Both the position numbers and the translations under genes were made by a program. From sequence record MK310184: DNA of 64,000 bases. The stretch is one strand, 5' to 3'. Each line of letters begins with the position of its first letter. The first letter of the stretch is position 1. The notes below the pieces were generated by a model. That model made no database searches and was not told the origin of the DNA. It saw nothing but the letters and a program-made list of their open reading frames with translations. The stretch is from Phage NC-G. Below are positions 32,816 to 43,047 of this stretch, in pieces.

Positions 32816-32823
32816 CAAAAAAA

Positions 32824-32841
32824 GGAGAGCTTACGCTCTCC
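32824..32841. terminator. Bidirectional hairpin terminator between gene 54 (+) and the alt region (-)
   Basis: ggagagcttacgctctcc stem-loop flanked by A-run and T-rich sequence. Confidence 0.7.
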
Positions 32842-32850
32842 TTTAGGGGT

Positions 32851-33141: not shown

Positions 33142-33199
33142 AATGTTCTCCTCATGTTTGTGTAAGGTAATAGTACCACATCCTTGTGGCGTTGTAAAC
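33142..33199 (-). promoter_or_regulatory. Early-promoter cassette upstream of ORF 32851-33141
   Basis: Minus strand: GTTTAC-N18-TACTAT...CATGAGGAGAACATT-ATG, with hairpin CCACAAGGATGTGG in the spacer. Confidence 0.6.
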
Positions 33200-35322
33200 T
33201 ACATTTTGAATTTATTTGATAAAGAAGAGATGTCCAAAGATGCAGCAAGGATTTCCATAGCCTCATTACTTTCTGAAACAGATTCTGAAACTAGGAATTC
33301 TTTAAACCCATTCATCAATTTAACTTCACCGGTTTCCATCAGATGGTCGCCATCGTAAACGGATTCGCTGAGTTCTGAAGGAGATGTCACTGTAGCTTCC
33401 ATAAGGTATTTGTGAGATACTCTATCATTCATAGCAAAAGCCGCTACTTTATCAACCTTCAACAATAACCCGCGCGGAAGGATAATTTCCGCTTCTTCGG
33501 CATATTCTGTAAGGTCGCCAGGAGCGATAACTTTAACTGCTTCAGCACCTCGAATAACCATACCAATTTCAGCAATCCTGTCTGCAGGGCCTTCAGGTGC
33601 AATTGGATTACCAAACTCGTCTTCTTCCCATTCTACCTCTTCGTCATCGACTTCACCTACGTCAGATGAACTACCACTGGCTAATTTAAACAACTCATCA
33701 GCGGAGGATAAAGAACCTTCATCACCAACAAAAACTGCTTGGTTGTCGAGGGCCATATAATTTTTACCAAATTCGCCAAAGATATTAGGCTTTAATGAAG
33801 CGGACACAAAGTTCTTAAAGTAAAATGTTTTGTTATCAATATTATGGCGCAGAATTTTGTATGGTAAATCCTGACCACGATACAAAATAGTACCCTTAGG
33901 AAGTTTAATACCCTTGGTAAATGCTGAGTCTAAATCCTTAATCAATTTAATAGCTGTTGTATTGTTTTCGGATTCAGGTTTACCTAAAAGGAATAAGTTC
34001 ATAGGAGCATATTCAGCCGCACAATATTCAATAATGGCATTACTTTCGTCTTTGGTCAAGCCCTTAGGTTTAATGAGCTCGCCTGAATAAGCATATGCAT
34101 CGCTAATAGAATCGTTAATCAGTTTATAAACGGCTTCCATAGCGAAAGCAATTCGGGATGCTTTCTCTGAAGGAGACCCCTGAAAACGGGCACTCAGGTT
34201 ATTAACAATTCTCTTAATAATATCCAGACTATTGGTAGTATTGATTTGAGAAAGGCCACTTAAAAGTCTATCGACTTCCGTATTAAAAAATGCCATATTA
34301 TTAGAGTAAATTTCAAACCCTTGTTTATCTCTATTAGCATAATTTAGTTTAAATTTACTATCAGTCATTAAAGCGTGCGTGAGAGCAATGGTGTATCTAA
34401 AGTTGGCAAGGTCCTCACTCTTAGATTTAAACTGAGAGGCCTGACGCATTTTAGTAATAGCACCTTTTTTAAAGTTCTGACTAATCTGCTCAATACCTTC
34501 GTTCTCAGGGCCTTCGGCCGAGTGAACAGGGACAGAAGCTTCAAACTCGTTATAAACCTGCAATTCTTTAGGTGATAAAGTTTCAGGTTCGGCAGTAGAA
34601 TACTGTGCTGCTGCAGCCATACGACGGGAAATCTTAGTACGAGAAATAACAGCCTTATCGGTACGTTTCTCTTCAACCTGTGCAATAGATGCCGCTACGG
34701 CTTCTACTTTACTTACGGCCTGGCCGGTTTTCTTAGAAACATAAACTTCACCGACTTTAGACTCAACCTTGGTATAAAGGTCTGCATCAATTTCAGGCAT
34801 ACCCTTGATATCTTCGATATTAGAACCACGACGTACTAAAAGGACGTAGGTATGTTTACCACTAAACTGGAACATATCATCGACAACTTTAAACTTACCA
34901 CCGGTACGTGCCATCGCCAAACGAGCTAATACACGCTGAACAGTAGGGCCCTTACCTTTCATTTTCTTGGTAGGGAAACGGAACAAAACCGCATCCATTT
35001 TAAGTTTGTTTACTTGTTCGTATACAGTATCGAAAATAGTATTCAGTGTACCAAGTGGGTCAGAACCAAGCCCGCCTTTGAGTTCGGCTGGAGCACCCTT
35101 GCTAGACAAACTCATTAAAATAACATGAACGTATTTGTCGCCAGGCTTAACCATTTTAATAGCGTCTCCTTGAGACGCATAAGATACCATACGAGCAACC
35201 AGGTTATCATTACCTGGCGCTTGGATAGAGAAAATCTGTGGGATACCTGAGCCTGGCTTAAGATTTGTTACTGGATAGTTTTTAGCTGAATCACTATCAA
35301 AAACTTCGTTTAAATTTTCCAT
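33199..35322 (-). CDS. Alt-like ADP-ribosyltransferase paralog (707 aa)
   Basis: Collinear with adjacent alt: shared N-terminal packaging region (LVARMVSYAS.GDAIK, FRFPTKKMKG.GP), catalytic-domain blocks YRGQ, FYFKNFVSASL, EIILPRGL, YDGDHLMETGE. Confidence 0.88.
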   Translation of the reverse strand: MENLNEVFDSDSAKNYPVTNLKPGSGIPQIFSIQAPGNDNLVARMVSYASQGDAIKMVKPGDKYVHVILMSLSSKGAPAELKGGLGSDPLGTLNTIFDTVYEQVNKLKMDAVLFRFPTKKMKGKGPTVQRVLARLAMARTGGKFKVVDDMFQFSGKHTYVLLVRRGSNIEDIKGMPEIDADLYTKVESKVGEVYVSKKTGQAVSKVEAVAASIAQVEEKRTDKAVISRTKISRRMAAAAQYSTAEPETLSPKELQVYNEFEASVPVHSAEGPENEGIEQISQNFKKGAITKMRQASQFKSKSEDLANFRYTIALTHALMTDSKFKLNYANRDKQGFEIYSNNMAFFNTEVDRLLSGLSQINTTNSLDIIKRIVNNLSARFQGSPSEKASRIAFAMEAVYKLINDSISDAYAYSGELIKPKGLTKDESNAIIEYCAAEYAPMNLFLLGKPESENNTTAIKLIKDLDSAFTKGIKLPKGTILYRGQDLPYKILRHNIDNKTFYFKNFVSASLKPNIFGEFGKNYMALDNQAVFVGDEGSLSSADELFKLASGSSSDVGEVDDEEVEWEEDEFGNPIAPEGPADRIAEIGMVIRGAEAVKVIAPGDLTEYAEEAEIILPRGLLLKVDKVAAFAMNDRVSHKYLMEATVTSPSELSESVYDGDHLMETGEVKLMNGFKEFLVSESVSESNEAMEILAASLDISSLSNKFKM

Positions 35323-35325
35323 TAT

Positions 35326-37410
35326 TTACCCTTGGATGAATTTTTCTGGGATGTCATAGAGGTCTATGCATGAAGCCAAAAGAGGCAGTACGTCAAACCG
35401 TGTAGATTTAACAAATGAATCAAAAGATACAGGGCTTTCGGAAGTATCGAAGTCATCTTGGTATACAACCAATTCACCAGTTTCCATTAGTACGTCGCCA
35501 TCATACACTACAGATTCTTGAAGCTCATCTGTCGTCATAACTTCGGCTTGAACGAGTTTTGTATTATTAGATGTTGTTCCGTCATTATTAGAGGCGTCAG
35601 TTATTTTATTAACTTTGACCATCAATCCGCGTGGTAGAATAACTTCAGCTTCGGTTGCTATTCCGAGACTTCCTGGATATACAACATTAACTTTATGGGC
35701 TCCATCAATTGCCCATCCTATTTGAACTTTAACGTAATCAGGGTTTTCTTTATACGCTCTTATTTCATTAGGATTAATGGTTATTCCTTCTTCATTTTTA
35801 TCGACTGTCAATTCATTGCGAACTTCCGGTTCTAAAAGACCTACACCCGCGTGTGTAACACCAAAACGTCCAAAAATGATAGGAGTCAGTGAAGTAGATA
35901 CAAAATTTCTGAAATAGAACACTTTATTTTTAACTAGCGCTTCGTATATAGGAGCAGTCATACTTTGAGCACGATAAACTGTAATGCCTTCTGGTATACG
36001 GTCACCATTTTCAAAAGCGGAATCAAGATTATTAACAGCAGATTCAATAGACCTTTCACTCATCACATCATAGTTCTGAGGATTGTAACGCCCTAAAAGA
36101 AGATTATTGATGTCGGTATATCCTGAGCCACAATATTCTCTAATGCCACGCTTTTGTGATGGGGTGTATTTAGAACCATCGCGAGCAATAGTAATATCGA
36201 CCATAATACCACCACCTACGCCAGCAAAACTATACACGCGTTTTTTAATGAACTTGGTCTTGGCTGCTTTCCACTTGGACTCGGTTAATTCATTCCAGAC
36301 GTCGTCAGGTTGACCTTTACGAGTTTTGTTATGTATAGCCAACCATTCACCTTTGTATTCTTCGAAAACCGTATTAATAACAGAGGCATATTTTTCTAGA
36401 GCTTTAACAGATGTCAAAGGTTCGTTTTTGATGGCTGTAAGAATTTTCTCTTTAATTTTCTCTTGAATTTCACCTATGCCGTGAAGTGGAAACATTTTAT
36501 ATTCGTAATGCAACTCTTCAGCAGTGCCTTCAGCTACTATATTAGCAACTTTATTTTTAGCCGCAGGAGAATTGTTATTGGTGACCATTTCCTGGGCCTC
36601 AGGGATTAACGGAGCTGTTGCAGGTTTATTAAAATCTGCTGCAGTAGCTTCATATTTCTTAAACAGTTCACTTTCATTACGATAAGATTCTAAAGATTGA
36701 CTGGCTGCAATAGCTCGACGAGAAATCTTAGTCTTGGTTACAACCATTTTATCAGTGCGACGTTCTTCGACTTTAGCAATACTGCCGGCAATAGCAGTTT
36801 CTTTAGTAACCTGCATGCCTTCTTTTTTAGAAATATAAACTTCGCCAACATCAGAATCTACCTTAGTATACAAATCAGCATTAATTCCTGGCATACCTTT
36901 GATATCTTCAATATCAGCTTGTTTACGAACTACTAGGATATAAGTATGTTTACCAGTAAATTGGTACATAGCCGGAACTACTTTGAAGCGGCCGCCTGTT
37001 TTTTGAGTTACCAAACGTTGGATGATTCTCTGGACGATAGGTCCTTGCCCTTTCATTTTCTTGGTTGGAAAACGGAACATGATAGCATCCATACGAAGCT
37101 TTTTAACTTGTTCGAATACTACGTCGAAAATGGTATTAATAGCATCAATAGGAGTAGGGCCTAAGCCGCCTTTAAGTTCGGCTGGAGAACCTTTAGCTGA
37201 AAGGCTCATAAGGATAACGTGGGCGTATTTATCACCTAATTTAACCTGTTTAATAGCATCGCCTTCAGAGGCATAAGATACCATACGAGCAACTAATTGG
37301 GATTCGGCGTCGCCAATCTTCCAAATCTGCGGTACTTTAAGTTTTGGGTTTAAGTTTACAGTAGGCAGGGTGCCTTCGGACTCAAACACCTCATTCAATT
37401 GTTCGGTCAT
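35326..37410 (-). CDS. alt: Alt ADP-ribosyltransferase (capsid-packaged, modifies host RNA polymerase), 694 aa
   Basis: Closest to remembered T4 Alt: ...KYTPSQKRGIREY.GSGY.DINN.LLG, VYRAQSM, VFYFRNFVSTSL, EVILPRGLMVKVNKITDAS, C-terminal ASCIDL...KF.QG. Confidence 0.93.
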   Translation of the reverse strand: MTEQLNEVFESEGTLPTVNLNPKLKVPQIWKIGDAESQLVARMVSYASEGDAIKQVKLGDKYAHVILMSLSAKGSPAELKGGLGPTPIDAINTIFDVVFEQVKKLRMDAIMFRFPTKKMKGQGPIVQRIIQRLVTQKTGGRFKVVPAMYQFTGKHTYILVVRKQADIEDIKGMPGINADLYTKVDSDVGEVYISKKEGMQVTKETAIAGSIAKVEERRTDKMVVTKTKISRRAIAASQSLESYRNESELFKKYEATAADFNKPATAPLIPEAQEMVTNNNSPAAKNKVANIVAEGTAEELHYEYKMFPLHGIGEIQEKIKEKILTAIKNEPLTSVKALEKYASVINTVFEEYKGEWLAIHNKTRKGQPDDVWNELTESKWKAAKTKFIKKRVYSFAGVGGGIMVDITIARDGSKYTPSQKRGIREYCGSGYTDINNLLLGRYNPQNYDVMSERSIESAVNNLDSAFENGDRIPEGITVYRAQSMTAPIYEALVKNKVFYFRNFVSTSLTPIIFGRFGVTHAGVGLLEPEVRNELTVDKNEEGITINPNEIRAYKENPDYVKVQIGWAIDGAHKVNVVYPGSLGIATEAEVILPRGLMVKVNKITDASNNDGTTSNNTKLVQAEVMTTDELQESVVYDGDVLMETGELVVYQDDFDTSESPVSFDSFVKSTRFDVLPLLASCIDLYDIPEKFIQG

Positions 37411-37460
37411 AATAATTCCTCTTTAATAACCGTATTTATGCCATAAAAGGCCCGAAGGCC

Positions 37461-37634
37461 TTAAAGTGGTAGCAACGTACGATATACTTCGAATGTCGGG
37501 CCTTTTTCATAGCCATCAAACATGTCTTTAAAATCGGCAAAAGCTATTTCATCCTCAAACTCTAGGATGATTTGAGAGGCCGCAGTGGTATTTGTGTTTG
37601 TTACAACAATTGTTTCTAAATAAGCTTTCATATT
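37461..37634 (-). CDS. Small hypothetical protein (57 aa) between DNA ligase and alt
   Basis: ATGA-coupled to ligase stop; acidic small protein; followed by hairpin AGGCCCGAAGGCCT. Confidence 0.45.
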   Translation of the reverse strand, partial: NMKAYLETIVVTNTNTTAASQIILEFEDEIAFADFKDMFDGYEKGPTFEVYRTLLPL

Positions 37635-39156
37635 ATAGTCCAGTTTGAGACCAATCACCAAATACATCTTCAAATGTATCAGCTTCAGTTTTATCGAAAC
37701 GCCAACCTTTAATAATTGGAAGGAAAATACCTACAGTATCAGTACGTCCTTTAGAATGAACCCAACCATTACATTCACAGTCAGCAATACGTCCAATCAA
37801 CTTACCTTCACGAGCTTGTTTCATAAGAAGTTCACGGTCTAAATCAGGGCGGTCTTCTAATGGAATCAATACCTTTTTACCTGATTTATCTTTCTTATGG
37901 GTAGTATCTTTAAAGCCTGAACCACAGTCGGATGTAATTCGACGACACCGCGATACTAGCTCGACACCACCAAGTTTGTTAGGGTCCTTAGAGTGTTCAT
38001 AGTAACCTACTACTTCTAAAGCGATATCGATTACTTCTTTGAACTTGATAAGATTCTTAGAACGGCGGTTTTCCCAGTAGGAGTCCATGTTCTTAAGGAT
38101 AATACCTTCCAGACCTTGGTCGACATATTTCTTATAAACGACTTTAGCTTCGTCAAGATTATTAACCCATTGGTTTTCGATAGCTTCAACACGCGTTGTA
38201 CCATGCAATACGACATTATGGGCAACCATAAGTTCTAAGGCTGCAAAGCGTACATCATACTTATCGCCTTTAATTTTACCTTCGGAATATACGACATCCA
38301 ATGGGACATAATCCCACGCCTGCAATACCATACCTGCTGCTTCGGTTGGAGTAATAGTTCCTTGAAGAGCCTTGTTAGCCAACCCGTTTGAAGTAGAACG
38401 ATCGGCTACGGTTTGGAATTCCTTGGCTTTACTTAATTCAGGAAGTTCCTCATCAAACATACTAAACAAATCATTAGACGCTTTAGGTTCTACTTTAGGA
38501 GTGTGGTAAACTAATTCACCATCAATCATAACACCATTAGGATGGCGCTGTCGGGCTTCTTCGGTCATGGCCATTAATTCAGCCGCCAAAAGAGTAAGCC
38601 CTTGATATTCATTACCACCACGAGTAAGGAATGTTACGCCATCGTTACGAACTTCAGCAAAACAACGAGCACCGTCAGCTTTTAATTGGGCGAACGCAGG
38701 CCATTTGATATTTTTCTTAATCAAATCTTCATCATAAGAACTAGCTAACATTTGAGGTTGTTCAGGGATTAAACCTTTCCAAACCTTGTTAGCAATAGAA
38801 ATCGATGCACCACATTCAAGGTCACGCATCATTACGCGACGTAATACCTCAGCGTCAGGACCCTTGGCATCAGCAATAATTTGGGCAAGCTCTTCAATAG
38901 CGGCATTACCCGTAATCTTACGGGTGGCTAATGTGAACTCAGCGAAATCAAGAAGGTCTTCAAGTGTAACCATACCAAAGGATTGAGACGTAAATCCAGG
39001 TTCTGGCCACTTTTTAATACCATAGTTCAAACGACGGGTATAAGCCATACGATATACACGTTTCAGAAGCTCGTTATCCTTTTCACGAGCAATAATAGCT
39101 TCTTTAGCTTTAGTAGAACCAATAGAAGCAATTTCGTTTAAAATATCTAAAATCAT
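37633..39156 (-). CDS. 30: ATP-dependent DNA ligase gp30
   Basis: N-terminus MILDILNEIASIGSTKAK and motif I KADGAR (lysine adenylation site), GIILK, C-terminal ECNGW match T4 DNA ligase. Confidence 0.96.
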   Translation of the reverse strand: MILDILNEIASIGSTKAKEAIIAREKDNELLKRVYRMAYTRRLNYGIKKWPEPGFTSQSFGMVTLEDLLDFAEFTLATRKITGNAAIEELAQIIADAKGPDAEVLRRVMMRDLECGASISIANKVWKGLIPEQPQMLASSYDEDLIKKNIKWPAFAQLKADGARCFAEVRNDGVTFLTRGGNEYQGLTLLAAELMAMTEEARQRHPNGVMIDGELVYHTPKVEPKASNDLFSMFDEELPELSKAKEFQTVADRSTSNGLANKALQGTITPTEAAGMVLQAWDYVPLDVVYSEGKIKGDKYDVRFAALELMVAHNVVLHGTTRVEAIENQWVNNLDEAKVVYKKYVDQGLEGIILKNMDSYWENRRSKNLIKFKEVIDIALEVVGYYEHSKDPNKLGGVELVSRCRRITSDCGSGFKDTTHKKDKSGKKVLIPLEDRPDLDRELLMKQAREGKLIGRIADCECNGWVHSKGRTDTVGIFLPIIKGWRFDKTEADTFEDVFGDWSQTGL

Positions 39157-39416
39157 TTTACCGTCCTTACAGTTTGTGTACTTCTATTATAAGCTACTTC
39201 ATCTAAAAGCTCATTTAAAGTTTTGTGATACGATATAATACGCTTATCTTTAATATCATATTCAGTAACATACATAAATCCACGCCGAACACATTGGATA
39301 AAGATATCTTCATCTTTGGCTTGGAAATATACAGGATTCAATCGAAGGAATTGTCTAAAGTTTCCATAATCATGGGATTTAGGGATTCCATCAGTAATAG
39401 TATGAACAACAAACAT
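39153..39416 (-). CDS. Hypothetical protein (30.1 position)
   Basis: ORF immediately upstream of ligase; start set at internal ATG next to 30.2 stop. Confidence 0.5.
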   Translation of the reverse strand: MFVVHTITDGIPKSHDYGNFRQFLRLNPVYFQAKDEDIFIQCVRRGFMYVTEYDIKDKRIISYHKTLNELLDEVAYNRSTQTVRTVK

Positions 39417-39417
39417 A

Positions 39418-40056
39418 TTAACCTCGTGCAATCCATTCAACGGCTGCATTATTACGAAGGGATTCGATTGCTGCGATATCGTCCCATGAATTAACCTTTA
39501 CGGCTAAATTAGGTTTAAAGTCGCGTTCACCACGGGCTAACCAATAAACTTGGATATCCATGAGAATATTAGATGCTGCATCACAGTGATGAGCCAAATC
39601 ATCAACATAAAACTTAATGCGTTTGCCGTATGTATTTTTAGCTCTTATGAACAGGTCTTCTTTTGATTCTGAATGACCACACATCAGAATCTCCTTGAAT
39701 GCGCCAGGGAACAAAGCATTCAAATTGAATTGTCTATTCAGCAGGGCATCAATTGAGTCGCCTAGCGCAGTCACGGCTACAAAATCGAAGTCTTTTTTGA
39801 GCTTGTTGATGTGTTTTAATGCGTCCATGTAAGGGGACAGATAACGAATAAAATCCGACTGATTATATTTCTCAATTAAACGTGCGCCTAATTCGTCGTC
39901 ACAATTAAACAGTTCACCTGGAGATAAGAAACGTTCGTCCTGAATCATATTCAAAATATGTTCTAAAGGCAAATTATATTTCTGTGCGAAATAAGGCAAG
40001 CCGGACTGCCAACTTAAACATACTCCATCGATATCTGTTAAGATAACTGGTTTCAT
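39418..40056 (-). CDS. HAD-superfamily phosphatase-like protein (30.2 position)
   Basis: N-terminal DIDGV (HAD motif I, DxDG) and later D-rich motif; 212 aa. Confidence 0.65.
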   Translation of the reverse strand: MKPVILTDIDGVCLSWQSGLPYFAQKYNLPLEHILNMIQDERFLSPGELFNCDDELGARLIEKYNQSDFIRYLSPYMDALKHINKLKKDFDFVAVTALGDSIDALLNRQFNLNALFPGAFKEILMCGHSESKEDLFIRAKNTYGKRIKFYVDDLAHHCDAASNILMDIQVYWLARGERDFKPNLAVKVNSWDDIAAIESLRNNAAVEWIARG

Positions 40057-40520
40057 AATAAATCTCTCAATTTGTTTAGGATGTCGATAAACTCTTTTTC
40101 AGTTAGTATTGTATCACATTCTTTGAGGTGGCTTGCCATTGAATGCTTTAAAACCTTACCTTTAGTGGCTTGTAAAGCTTCTCGGAATCCTTTGTTCTGG
40201 AGCGCTGCTTCAAAATACGCGCTTTCGTAAAGCTCTTTCCACGCTTCGGAATATCTTGAAAACGGGGTTCCAAGCCAGAACAACGTGCCACGGTCCTGAG
40301 CTCTAGCATAAGCTCGTCCAGCTTTTTGCGCGTCCAACCCAGACATCCTAAATATACGTCTTTGTTGTTCAACATTTTTCACCTTACATCCTTGGAGGAA
40401 TCCTTCGAGTCCACCAAATTGGATACCATCCATAACGAAAGGCCATTTAGCAAAGTTACTTAATGCACATGATGGCCACGGAAAGTTACTTCTAATTTCT
40501 AACTCAGACATCTTTGACAC
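40053..40520 (-). CDS. 30.3: NADAR (DUF1768/YbiA-like) domain protein, 30.3 homolog
   Basis: Motifs LSNF...F..G..F...E.F.Q..K and later AKF-like helix (GFREAL) are consistent with the NADAR fold; assignment from motif memory, not a search. Confidence 0.6.
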   Translation of the reverse strand: MSKMSELEIRSNFPWPSCALSNFAKWPFVMDGIQFGGLEGFLQGCKVKNVEQQRRIFRMSGLDAQKAGRAYARAQDRGTLFWLGTPFSRYSEAWKELYESAYFEAALQNKGFREALQATKGKVLKHSMASHLKECDTILTEKEFIDILNKLRDLL

Positions 40521-40719
40521 TTATAATTTCAACATCAGCCCAATAACCATAACCCGGCAGTCGGTCTTCAATGGATAAACCACCGTCATGTTTAGGCATT
40601 TTAATTGTCATGATATAAGGTTCTAAATGGTCCGCCGTATGAGGAGAAACATCAGTCACACGATAAGTCACTTCAACCATTTCCGTACCTAACAATTTCT
40701 GAATCAGTTTCTTAACCAT
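40504..40719 (-). CDS. Hypothetical small protein
   Basis: 71-aa ORF in the 30.x small-gene array. Confidence 0.45.
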   Translation of the reverse strand: MVKKLIQKLLGTEMVEVTYRVTDVSPHTADHLEPYIMTIKMPKHDGGLSIEDRLPGYGYWADVEIISVKDV

Positions 40720-40720
40720 A

Positions 40721-40915
40721 TTATCCTCGCTTCAAACATTTGATTACAGACAATTCAGAACCCATGCGAACGTCTTCGGTGCCATCGACCCATAGGACCG
40801 TGTAGGCTTCTTTAATAGTAGCATTACCCAATTTAAAAGCAGGTAAAACCTTTGAAATCATACCAGGAATACCTACACCTTTTAACTGAACGGTTTGTGA
40901 TAAGAATAGTTGCAT
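40721..40915 (-). CDS. Hypothetical small protein
   Basis: 64-aa ORF, tightly packed in the 30.x array. Confidence 0.45.
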   Translation of the reverse strand: MQLFLSQTVQLKGVGIPGMISKVLPAFKLGNATIKEAYTVLWVDGTEDVRMGSELSVIKCLKRG

Positions 40916-41202
40916 TAGAACCTCATCTGGAATCCATGTGATTTAACATTACCGCCGTAGATGTCAGAAGTATTGACTTCGCGGGCGACACTTGGGTCGA
41001 TGTTAATATCGCGGTTGAGCTTAGTGATTGCTAGGGTGTCACGACCATTGACTGTACGGAATTCTACTGGACAAACCACATCAGCATAGGCCTTAATGGA
41101 TTCACGAGTAGGCTGTTTGTCAGCAGGAACATCTTTACCTGCCTTAGAGAAAACAACTTCACAGAAATTTTTACGAGTATCGAAATAAGTGGTCATAAAC
41201 AT
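40915..41202 (-). CDS. Hypothetical protein (95 aa from internal start)
   Basis: ORF-track first ATG lies inside a GGAGGC-CGAA-GCCTCC hairpin; start moved to ATG after GAGGAAAA SD. Confidence 0.45.
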   Translation of the reverse strand: MFMTTYFDTRKNFCEVVFSKAGKDVPADKQPTRESIKAYADVVCPVEFRTVNGRDTLAITKLNRDINIDPSVAREVNTSDIYGGNVKSHGFQMRF

Positions 41203-41244
41203 AATATTTTCCTCAAAGGAGGCCGAAGCCTCCATTTTTTAAGA

Positions 41245-41610
41245 TTAGATATCAAATTCATTCAGAACTACATCAAAGATTGCTTCCAGGTGTTCAGGTT
41301 TAGCACGGTTGCTCAGGATATGACGAATCCAGGTTTTAACCAGAAGCTTACGATTATCACCGTTCCAGCAAGGATGGGTACCTAAATCACGTTGACGGAA
41401 ATCATCGTCTAAAGCGATTTTAAAAGTAGAACCTTCCATAGTGATTGAAACCGTGATACCATTTTCAAAGCGCATATAAACGTAGTTAGGAGTCATGCAC
41501 TGTTCGATTTCGCACACTGTGCCGTTGTTGTGTTTCCACAGGCAAATAACTTCAGAAGAACCAGCGATACCGTTAGAAACATATTTACGTTCGAAGTTGA
41601 TGTAGTTCAT
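41245..41610 (-). CDS. Hypothetical protein (121 aa)
   Basis: ORF with conserved leader ccaaataatacgaaaacaaactggagaataaaATG shared with the next gene upstream. Confidence 0.5.
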   Translation of the reverse strand: MNYINFERKYVSNGIAGSSEVICLWKHNNGTVCEIEQCMTPNYVYMRFENGITVSITMEGSTFKIALDDDFRQRDLGTHPCWNGDNRKLLVKTWIRHILSNRAKPEHLEAIFDVVLNEFDI

Positions 41611-41683
41611 TTTATTCTCCAGTTTGTTTTCGTATTATTTGGTACAGGTCTATAATAACACAACCTGTACCAAAGTAAAACAT

Positions 41684-42016
41684 TTATTTCACAACATTCC
41701 AATTTTTCATATCAAGTTTACCAACTTTTTTCATCTGAGCAATCAGACGTTCAGCACGTGTACGGGCATTAACGTAATAGAATTCACCAATTTTGTTTTC
41801 TTCGATACGACCAGTAATTACAGTTTTCAGTTCATAAATCCAACCTGTAAAGAAGTTGTGAAGCTCGATGGTAAATGTGAAATCAGTACCCATACCTTCA
41901 GTTGTTTCAACTTCGATGATATCACCTTCAACTGCAGTCAGGACCCACATGGTTTCTTGATATTCACCGTTGAAACATTTAGCTTTAACAGATGCATTCA
42001 GGTTTACAGTTTTCAT
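41684..42016 (-). CDS. Hypothetical protein (110 aa)
   Basis: ORF with the same ~40-nt leader as gene 41245-41610 and an early-promoter cassette upstream. Confidence 0.5.
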   Translation of the reverse strand: MKTVNLNASVKAKCFNGEYQETMWVLTAVEGDIIEVETTEGMGTDFTFTIELHNFFTGWIYELKTVITGRIEENKIGEFYYVNARTRAERLIAQMKKVGKLDMKNWNVVK

Positions 42017-42068: not shown

Positions 42069-42115
42069 CCTACCGGAGATGTATACCCTTTTTTAAAGAT
42101 TTAGAAACAAAAATG

Positions 42116-42133
42116 GGACTCCGAAGAGTCCCA
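42116..42133 (-). terminator. Hairpin terminator (GGGACUC-UUCG-GAGUCCC) after small basic gene
   Basis: gggactccgaagagtccc palindrome immediately 3' of ORF 42138-42299 on the minus strand. Confidence 0.65.
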
Positions 42134-42137
42134 TAAC

Positions 42138-43039: not shown

Positions 43040-43047
43040 TATTTATA
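43040..43047 (-). promoter_or_regulatory. Late promoter (minus-strand TATAAATA) between gene 31 and rIII
   Basis: Plus-strand tatttata = minus-strand TATAAATA just 3' of gene 31 stop. Confidence 0.5.

Follow-up and report, generated by a model that had tools for sequence, protein, structure and literature searches.

How does a phage undo the ADP-ribosylation of its DNA by a host toxin? The closest described case is gp30.3 of phage T4. Phage proteins of the gp30.3 type form a NADAR subfamily in which His replaces the last-strand Glu or Asp, according to the account of de Souza and Aravind (2012) that is given in PMC11543638 and PMC11125620. In vitro, T4 gp30.3 strips ADP-ribose from guanine and not from thymidine (Toxins 2024, PMC11125620); guanine de-ADP-ribosylation is also reported in PMC12945103, where T4 gp30.3 is absent from the listed NADARs active on cytidine-ADP-ribose. 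T4 30.3 was renamed adfN, for anti-DarT factor NADAR (Johannesman et al., Nat Commun 2025, PMC11825919). Deletion of adfN renders T4 sensitive to DarTG1, ectopic adfN rescues RB69, and the activity of T4 AdfN is lowered by E36A, by K43A and by a 15-residue C-terminal truncation, which the natural, inactive RB69 allele bears (PMC11825919). AdfN-T4 is without effect on the thymidine-modifying DarTG2, and in an independent T4 transposon screen 30.3 had a log2 fold change of −7.25 under DarTG1. Here we describe gene 30.3 and its neighbours in a 64,000-nucleotide stretch of Phage NC-G (record MK310184), called the window below.

Other described NADAR proteins differ from the phage protein. The antitoxin of DarTG1, called DarG1, is itself a NADAR protein (Schuller et al., Mol Cell 2023, PMC11543638; 8bat from Geobacter lovleyi, and the E. 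coli C7 NADAR). It is paired with DarT, whereas phage gp30.3 is an orphan that lacks the N-terminal extension of DarG1 and carries His in place of its catalytic Asp; unlike DarG1, the T4 protein cannot function as antitoxin when the cell is uninfected. E. coli YbiA (2b3w) and the Phytophthora NADAR (8bau) are 21-27% identical to gp30.3, and their last strand bears Glu instead of His. YbiA, encoded on the chromosome beside dinG and rhlE, also acts on riboflavin intermediates. The catalytic Glu/Lys pair is E43/K50 in PnNADAR and E36/K43 in T4, and the last strand supplies the third catalytic residue, which is Glu in YbiA, Asp in DarG1 and His in the phage NADARs (PMC11543638; PMC11125620).

Gene 30.3 and the NADAR active site

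The sequence places the source of the window among the JS98-like T-even phages: over 37000-42000 the closest nucleotide match is Escherichia phage JS98 with its relatives, at 98% identity (Dhakavirus, Tevenvirinae). The gene under study is the following.

40053-40511, minus strand: adfN (gene 30.3), 152 residues, a phage-type NADAR and predicted DNA guanine-ADP-ribose glycohydrolase

We estimate a probability of about 0.87 that this open reading frame (ORF) is the JS98-type orthologue of T4 adfN and encodes an anti-DarTG1 NADAR. It occupies the same slot as in T4, between 30.4 and 30.2 and with the same start and stop overlaps, and its product is 100% identical to the JS98 protein and 85% identical to the T4 protein over all 152 residues, without gaps. 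The window protein has the identical LEGFLQGCK segment, H123 and a full C-terminal helix, and its 23 substitutions relative to T4 AdfN cluster at residues 55-72 and 96-152. The helix (residues 138-152) is complete in window gp30.3, whereas RB69 gp30.3 stops at residue 137. The codons of the catalytic residues lie at 40404-40406 (E36), 40383-40385 (K43) and 40143-40145 (H123).

An earlier, preliminary description of this locus, made from the sequence alone, had given the gene as 40053-40520 with a 155-residue product, which is how an ORF finder calls it from a GTG at 40520. The ORF itself is real, and we place its true start three codons downstream, at the ATG at 40511, because that is where the homologues start and where JS98 and T4 are annotated to start; the predicted product then has 152 residues. 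This ATG shares bases with the stop codon of 30.4 (ATGTCTGA), as it does in T4 and RB69, and the stop codon of 30.3 overlaps the ATG of 30.2 (ATGA). The matches of gp30.3 to Pfam PF08010 (Phage_30_3; E=2e-65) and phrog_420 (E=2e-70), together with homologues of 30.3 in 1,510 phage records and of 30.2 in 1,437, show that neither is a chance ORF. In some GenBank records a homologue of 30.3 is already labelled NADAR or ybiA-like.

T4 carries a further annotation inside this gene, 30.3', and the window has its counterpart, a 75-codon ORF in another frame (40148-40375, minus strand). All 12 relatives compared keep this frame open, yet seven of them have an Ile or Thr codon where the ATG would be, and an open stretch just as long arises in 32% of synonymous resamplings of the sequence that codes for gp30.3. 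For these two reasons we rejected 30.3', which is probably not a gene.

Is gp30.3 a NADAR protein? The fold call required profiles and structure prediction, the single-sequence signals from Pfam, NCBIfam and the PDB all being below threshold. A profile of 10 family sequences matched YbiA alone in the PDB (E=0.005), and a profile of 60 sequences returned YbiA at the top (E=0.0012) with nothing else below E=0.19; the YbiA alignments of both profiles span the catalytic motif. Taken individually, 23 of 60 PF08010 family members match the Pfam NADAR family, PF08719, with a best E of 3.4e-6. A profile search of a large protein collection returned 4,592 relatives of gp30.3, some of them named YbiA or DUF1768 by JGI and some sitting on contigs of 290-390 kb that are probably bacterial.

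The active site leads to the same assignment. Residues E36 and K43 lie seven residues apart within LEGFLQGCK, which aligns with SEHYFQAQK of YbiA. Across the gp30.3 family E36 is invariant and K43 is invariant or nearly so, and H123 is invariant among 60 sequences. When the alignment is continued without gaps, H123 comes to stand opposite the Glu of KLVEH in YbiA. MAFFT instead placed H123 against a downstream His of YbiA by way of an inserted gap, a placement that we rejected because we prefer the ungapped register and the published equivalence of His and Glu. The protein has the alpha+beta fold of YbiA and the NADARs. Thus gp30.3 is a NADAR/YbiA-fold protein, as had been proposed, and by its residues it reads as a minimal, core-only NADAR enzyme with the catalytic triad E36/K43/H123 intact.

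Several points weigh against assigning the window gene to the anti-DarTG1 NADARs. Window gp30.3 has no match to PF08719 at E<=0.1, and as a single sequence it reaches only E=0.78 with YbiA, its sole PDB match, and E=0.037 with TIGR02464, neither of which is significant. Full AdfN-T4 activity is seen only during T-even infection, which means that the mechanism is incomplete. Finally, the JS98-type allele departs from that of T4 at 23 of its 152 positions, and the experiments were all done on the T4 protein. The first of these points carries no force against membership: since 23 of the 60 relatives do match PF08719 and the profiles find YbiA, the missing match reflects the way in which Pfam splits the superfamily. 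The preliminary description had named, as jointly speaking against its reading, the lack of a PF08719 match and a predicted fold without the NADAR active-site residues. Only the first half was found; the NADAR fold and the active-site residues are present.

The kinship with YbiA also bears on what the enzyme acts upon. Of the relatives that have a structure, YbiA is the closest in sequence, and it carries the annotation of an N-glycosidase; the weak TIGR02464 match points the same way, and phage NADARs have been proposed to target mostly low-molecular-weight ADP-ribose derivatives (Iyer et al. 2022, PMC9503650). The main substrates of AdfN might then be small molecules, either immune signals derived from ADP-ribose or riboflavin intermediates, with the activity on DNA secondary. 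We regard this as quite unlikely: the T4 orthologue removes ADP-ribose directly from DNA, its DarTG1 phenotype is strong and specific, with no effect on the thymidine-modifying DarTG2, and the phage NADARs carry His at the position of the catalytic Glu of YbiA.

We therefore retain DNA guanine as the favoured target of AdfN, and propose the following course of events. The DarT1 toxin of the host would ADP-ribosylate guanines of replicating phage DNA. AdfN would then cut the N-glycosidic bond that joins guanine N2 to ADP-ribose. With the base restored, replication could go on and DarTG1-mediated abortive infection would be neutralised. That gp30.3 might serve counter-defence against host ADP-ribosylation by DarT was also suggested in the preliminary description, and for T4 gp30.3/AdfN it has been demonstrated experimentally (PMC11825919; PMC11125620). 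By analogy with T4, the window allele should behave like T4 AdfN, and because the allele is intact this phage is predicted to resist DarTG1.

The Alt genes, gene 30.4 and the layout of the locus

From ~33.2 to 46.3 kb every gene lies on the minus strand, in the T4 order alt, alt, alt.1, 30, 30.1, 30.2, 30.3, 30.4-30.9, rIII, 31, cd. The synteny with T4, on which the preliminary description had remarked for 30.3, is confirmed for 30.2 and 30.3 by the same order in T4 and JS98. The features around adfN are these.

40504-40719, minus strand: gene 30.4, 71 residues, no assigned function; phrog_2042, E=6e-35
39418-40056, minus strand: gene 30.2, 212 residues, a HAD-superfamily hydrolase with a C1 cap, probably of the NT5C-like (nucleotidase-type) clade
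39153-39416, minus strand: gene 30.1 (DUF3045), 87 residues, between 30.2 and the ligase; PF11243, E=4e-19
37633-39156, minus strand: gene 30, ATP-dependent DNA ligase; PF01068, E=1e-23, and phrog_114, E=2e-156
37433-37460, minus strand: element at the boundary of the 30.x genes and alt, comprising a hairpin, a T-run and a late-promoter-like box, as read from the sequence
35326-37410 and 33199-35322, minus strand: two tandem Alt-type ADP-ribosyltransferases; PF03496, E=8e-36 and 6e-18, respectively

The tandem alt genes also match phrog_802 (E=1e-262 and 7e-251) and lie ~2.6-3.1 kb from 30.3; the window phage, a JS98-like Dhakavirus, has two such genes where T4 has one. Does gp30.3 act as an eraser to the Alt writers? 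Every gene from 30.9 to alt.-3 is on the same strand, no strong terminator is predicted between 30.8 and alt, and two other phages, one of Acinetobacter and one T4-like of Vibrio, also have alt-like genes ~2-7 kb from 30.3. The locus could on these grounds be a co-regulated leftward unit in which AdfN reverses or limits the ADP-ribosylation carried out by phage Alt, whether for self-protection or for recycling. The chemistry does not fit, however: the published NADAR substrates are guanine-linked and in some cases cytidine-linked ADP-ribose in nucleic acids (PMC11543638, PMC12945103), whereas Alt targets proteins. Published insertion data for T4 point the same way. Insertions in T4 30.3 are neutral on K-12 despite the presence of alt (27 of 28 sites hit, non-essential), which argues against self-protection, and T4 alt insertions are neutral under DarTG1 (log2 fold change −0.01, p=0.97; published transposon data).

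Nor is the shared strand evidence of a single transcript throughout. At the boundary of alt.1 and alt, a hairpin GGCC-TTCG-GGCC (37449-37460; GGCCTTCGGGCC) is followed by TTTT and then by CATAAATA (37433-37440), which has one mismatch to the late-promoter box of T4, TATAAATA; in T4 this boundary carries the same hairpin together with the exact box. Of the leftward transcription unit that the preliminary description had drawn from 30.3 to the Alt genes, the common strand thus stands, while the hairpin with its T-run and the late-promoter box divide alt.1 from alt, and four genes and 2.6 kb separate alt from 30.3. A hairpin and late-promoter box of its own suit Alt as a virion-packaged protein that modifies host proteins (PMC9503650), and T4 biology suggests that alt would be expressed late and the 30.x genes earlier.

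Comparison of loci likewise separates the two. In Acinetobacter phage fHyAci03, where the 30.3-30.2-ligase block persists, alt lies on the opposite strand. In Citrobacter phage CF1 (Moonvirus), the block alt-alt-alt.1-ligase-30.1-30.2 is whole at 123-130 kb and the 30.3 homologue is found at 69 kb near tRNA genes, ~60 kb from the alt block. Of 80 viral 30.3 loci, only ~24, all from close relatives, continue downstream into 30.2 and ligase, and ~55 have neither 30.2, ligase nor alt within 6 kb; in distant phages 30.3 adjoins other DNA-repair genes (SbcCD, helicase, endonuclease V). From the 80 loci and CF1 we rejected any co-variation of 30.2 or of alt with 30.3 beyond their shared synteny. The pairing of an Alt writer with gp30.3 as eraser is not supported and is, in our estimate, extremely improbable; the mismatch of chemistry, the neutral insertions and the unlinked loci leave the Alt genes as neighbours of adfN by T4-type synteny alone, not as functional partners.

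Two observations on the Alt-like genes stand apart from this comparison. The distant T4-like Vibrio phage 6E35-1b (L004, 1-432 and 7001-7456) has an Alt-like gene ~6.5 kb from 30.3 and on the opposite strand, and its 30.3 is followed by a 168-residue protein of no known function and SbcCD-type genes, not by 30.2 and ligase. In the window, the upstream alt paralogue (35326-37410, minus strand) is 70% identical to the corresponding JS98 gene and 96-97% identical to alt genes on other viral contigs (L007-L009), while the genes that flank it (30.1-30.3, ligase, second alt) are 99-100% identical to JS98. Because of this difference between the upstream alt and its flanks, the sequence suggests a recombinational mosaic at alt.

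The immediate upstream neighbour, 30.4, calls for separate discussion. In T4 it is the sole gene besides 30.3 that is significantly depleted under DarTG1 (log2 fold change −1.79, adjusted p 0.014). Since the 30.4 stop codon overlaps the adfN start, 30.4 probably affects adfN expression, and the simplest explanation of the T4 30.4 phenotype is a polar or translational-coupling effect on that expression. A second explanation is that gp30.4, a small and fast-evolving protein, is a T-even-specific factor on which full AdfN activity depends. Between T4 and the window gp30.4 is 46-47% identical, whereas gp30.3, gp30.6 and gp30.7 are 85-93% identical. Homologues of 30.4 were detected only in close T-even relatives, where they always abut 30.3; none was found at the relocated 30.3 of CF1 or in the sampled non-T-even 30.3 loci, which did not include T5 and Bas25. 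Ectopic adfN-T4 rescues RB69 fully, and T5 and Bas25 poorly; RB69 has its own 30.4. We consider such a role for gp30.4 unlikely.

Elsewhere in the locus, the ORF-finder version of 30.1 (39153-39449, 98 residues) overlaps 30.2 by 32 nucleotides. The PF11243 match begins at residue 12 of this longer ORF and the JS98 annotation concurs, which indicates that the true start is the ATG at 39416, one base past the 30.2 stop codon. Two terminator-like hairpins, with stems of 9-10 bp and T-runs, are the strongest of the region: one is at 42113-42134 (minus strand), between 30.9 and 30.8, the other at 32821-32844 (minus strand), downstream of the alt genes; they probably bound leftward transcripts. The whole window holds 17 copies of the late-promoter box TATAAATA against 6.6 expected by chance, mostly on the plus strand at 3.5-23 kb, with one at 43040-43047 (minus strand), directly past gene 31 and ahead of rIII. 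A simple scan for sigma-70 promoters gave no usable information, since shuffled sequence held more sites than the real one.

Gene 30.2 and its relation to AdfN

What is the role of the gene that follows adfN? The N-terminus of gp30.2 reads MKPVILTDIDGV, with the DIDGV motif at residues 8-12, and all the HAD catalytic motifs are present: motif I at D8-I-D10-G-V (D8 codon 40033-40035), motif II at T96, motif III at K132 and motif IV at D152-D153. Two Asp residues in HAD motif I point to a phosphatase rather than a dehalogenase. Among 42 sequences D8, D10, K132, D152 and D153 show no variation and T96 almost none, and among 74 distant members D8, D10, K132 and D153 are still invariant. An AlphaFold model (predicted local distance difference test score, pLDDT, 94.7) has a HAD Rossmann-like core and a helical C1 cap. 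The protein almost certainly has the HAD fold, and the earlier recognition of a HAD-type protein with DIDGV has held up.

The substrate class is less secure. The gp30.2 family comprises 1,267 representative clusters, and 33 of 74 distant members match Pfam NT5C, with a best E of 4e-10. An extended gp30.2 profile finds 3bwv over its full length (E=1.8e-6), followed by the yeast nucleotidase SSM1 and the mitochondrial deoxyribonucleotidase (mdN; E=0.003). Compared with the NT5C-type 5'(3')-deoxyribonucleotidases (human cdN/mdN; S. epidermidis 3bwv), gp30.2 is alike in its C1-capped HAD fold and shares the DxDGV motif I and the conserved Lys and DD motifs. It differs in an identity of only ~14-18% to the solved structures and in a Pfam score of its own below the cut-off, and it is without the variable C-terminal extension that most relatives carry. 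Three results count against the assignment or leave it unspecific. Window gp30.2 itself reaches E=0.1 with NT5C (12.9 bits, cut-off 24.8 bits); the close-family profile reaches E=0.08 with 2jao; and a Foldseek search against the PDB gave generic HAD matches only and did not resolve the subfamily. The substrate assignment is drawn from distant relatives and a generic HAD fold, which also tells against it. The most likely prediction is that gp30.2 is a (deoxy)nucleoside-monophosphate phosphatase, and we give about even odds to this substrate class. A literature search on 'gp30.2' returned no papers.

The lengths of the family members vary from ~196 to 347 residues. In the window and JS98 gp30.2 has 212 residues and in T4 278 (L001, 5475-6311); the ~66-residue C-terminal extension of the T4 protein, rich in aromatic residues, Pro and Asn, is missing from the other two.

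The position of 30.2 raises the question of whether the two enzymes act in sequence. The ATGA overlap of the 30.3 stop and 30.2 start suggests translational coupling, the adjacency of the two genes is kept in T-even, JS98-like and Acinetobacter phages, and a DUF4326 phosphatase, which is of another fold, is a frequent partner of NADAR, Macro and SLOG domains in phages (PMC9503650). One could accordingly imagine that gp30.2 dephosphorylates the released ADP-ribose or its products, or that it is the T-even helper of AdfN-T4, whose need for a T-even context would then be accounted for. Against this, insertions at 71 sites in T4 30.2 are neutral under DarTG1 (log2 fold change −0.12, p=0.61); those in T4 30.1 are likewise neutral (−0.01). 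CF1 keeps 30.2 beside the ligase with 30.3 ~60 kb off, the pair is unlinked in most distant loci, and the near-identical taxonomic spread of 30.2 and 30.3 means only that both are near-core genes of the Straboviridae. A second step is moreover not required, as NADAR hydrolysis alone restores the base. We judge such a two-step pathway very unlikely. In our preferred reading gene 30.2 is part of the conserved 30.2-(30.1)-ligase block, and its product works independently of AdfN.

Finally, both the fold of gp30.3 and its counter-defence role are already known, and the functional novelty that the preliminary description had seen in this gene does not hold: the prediction of its function dates from 2012, and the demonstration from 2023-2025. 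In the published course, the NADAR subfamily was defined in 2012 (de Souza and Aravind, as reported in PMC11543638), enzymatic activity followed in 2024 and anti-DarTG1 genetics in 2025, the anti-DarTG1 role being shown a second time by transposon sequencing. The practical gain for the window is an upgrade of annotation, in which 30.3 becomes adfN and 30.2 becomes an NT5C-like HAD hydrolase.

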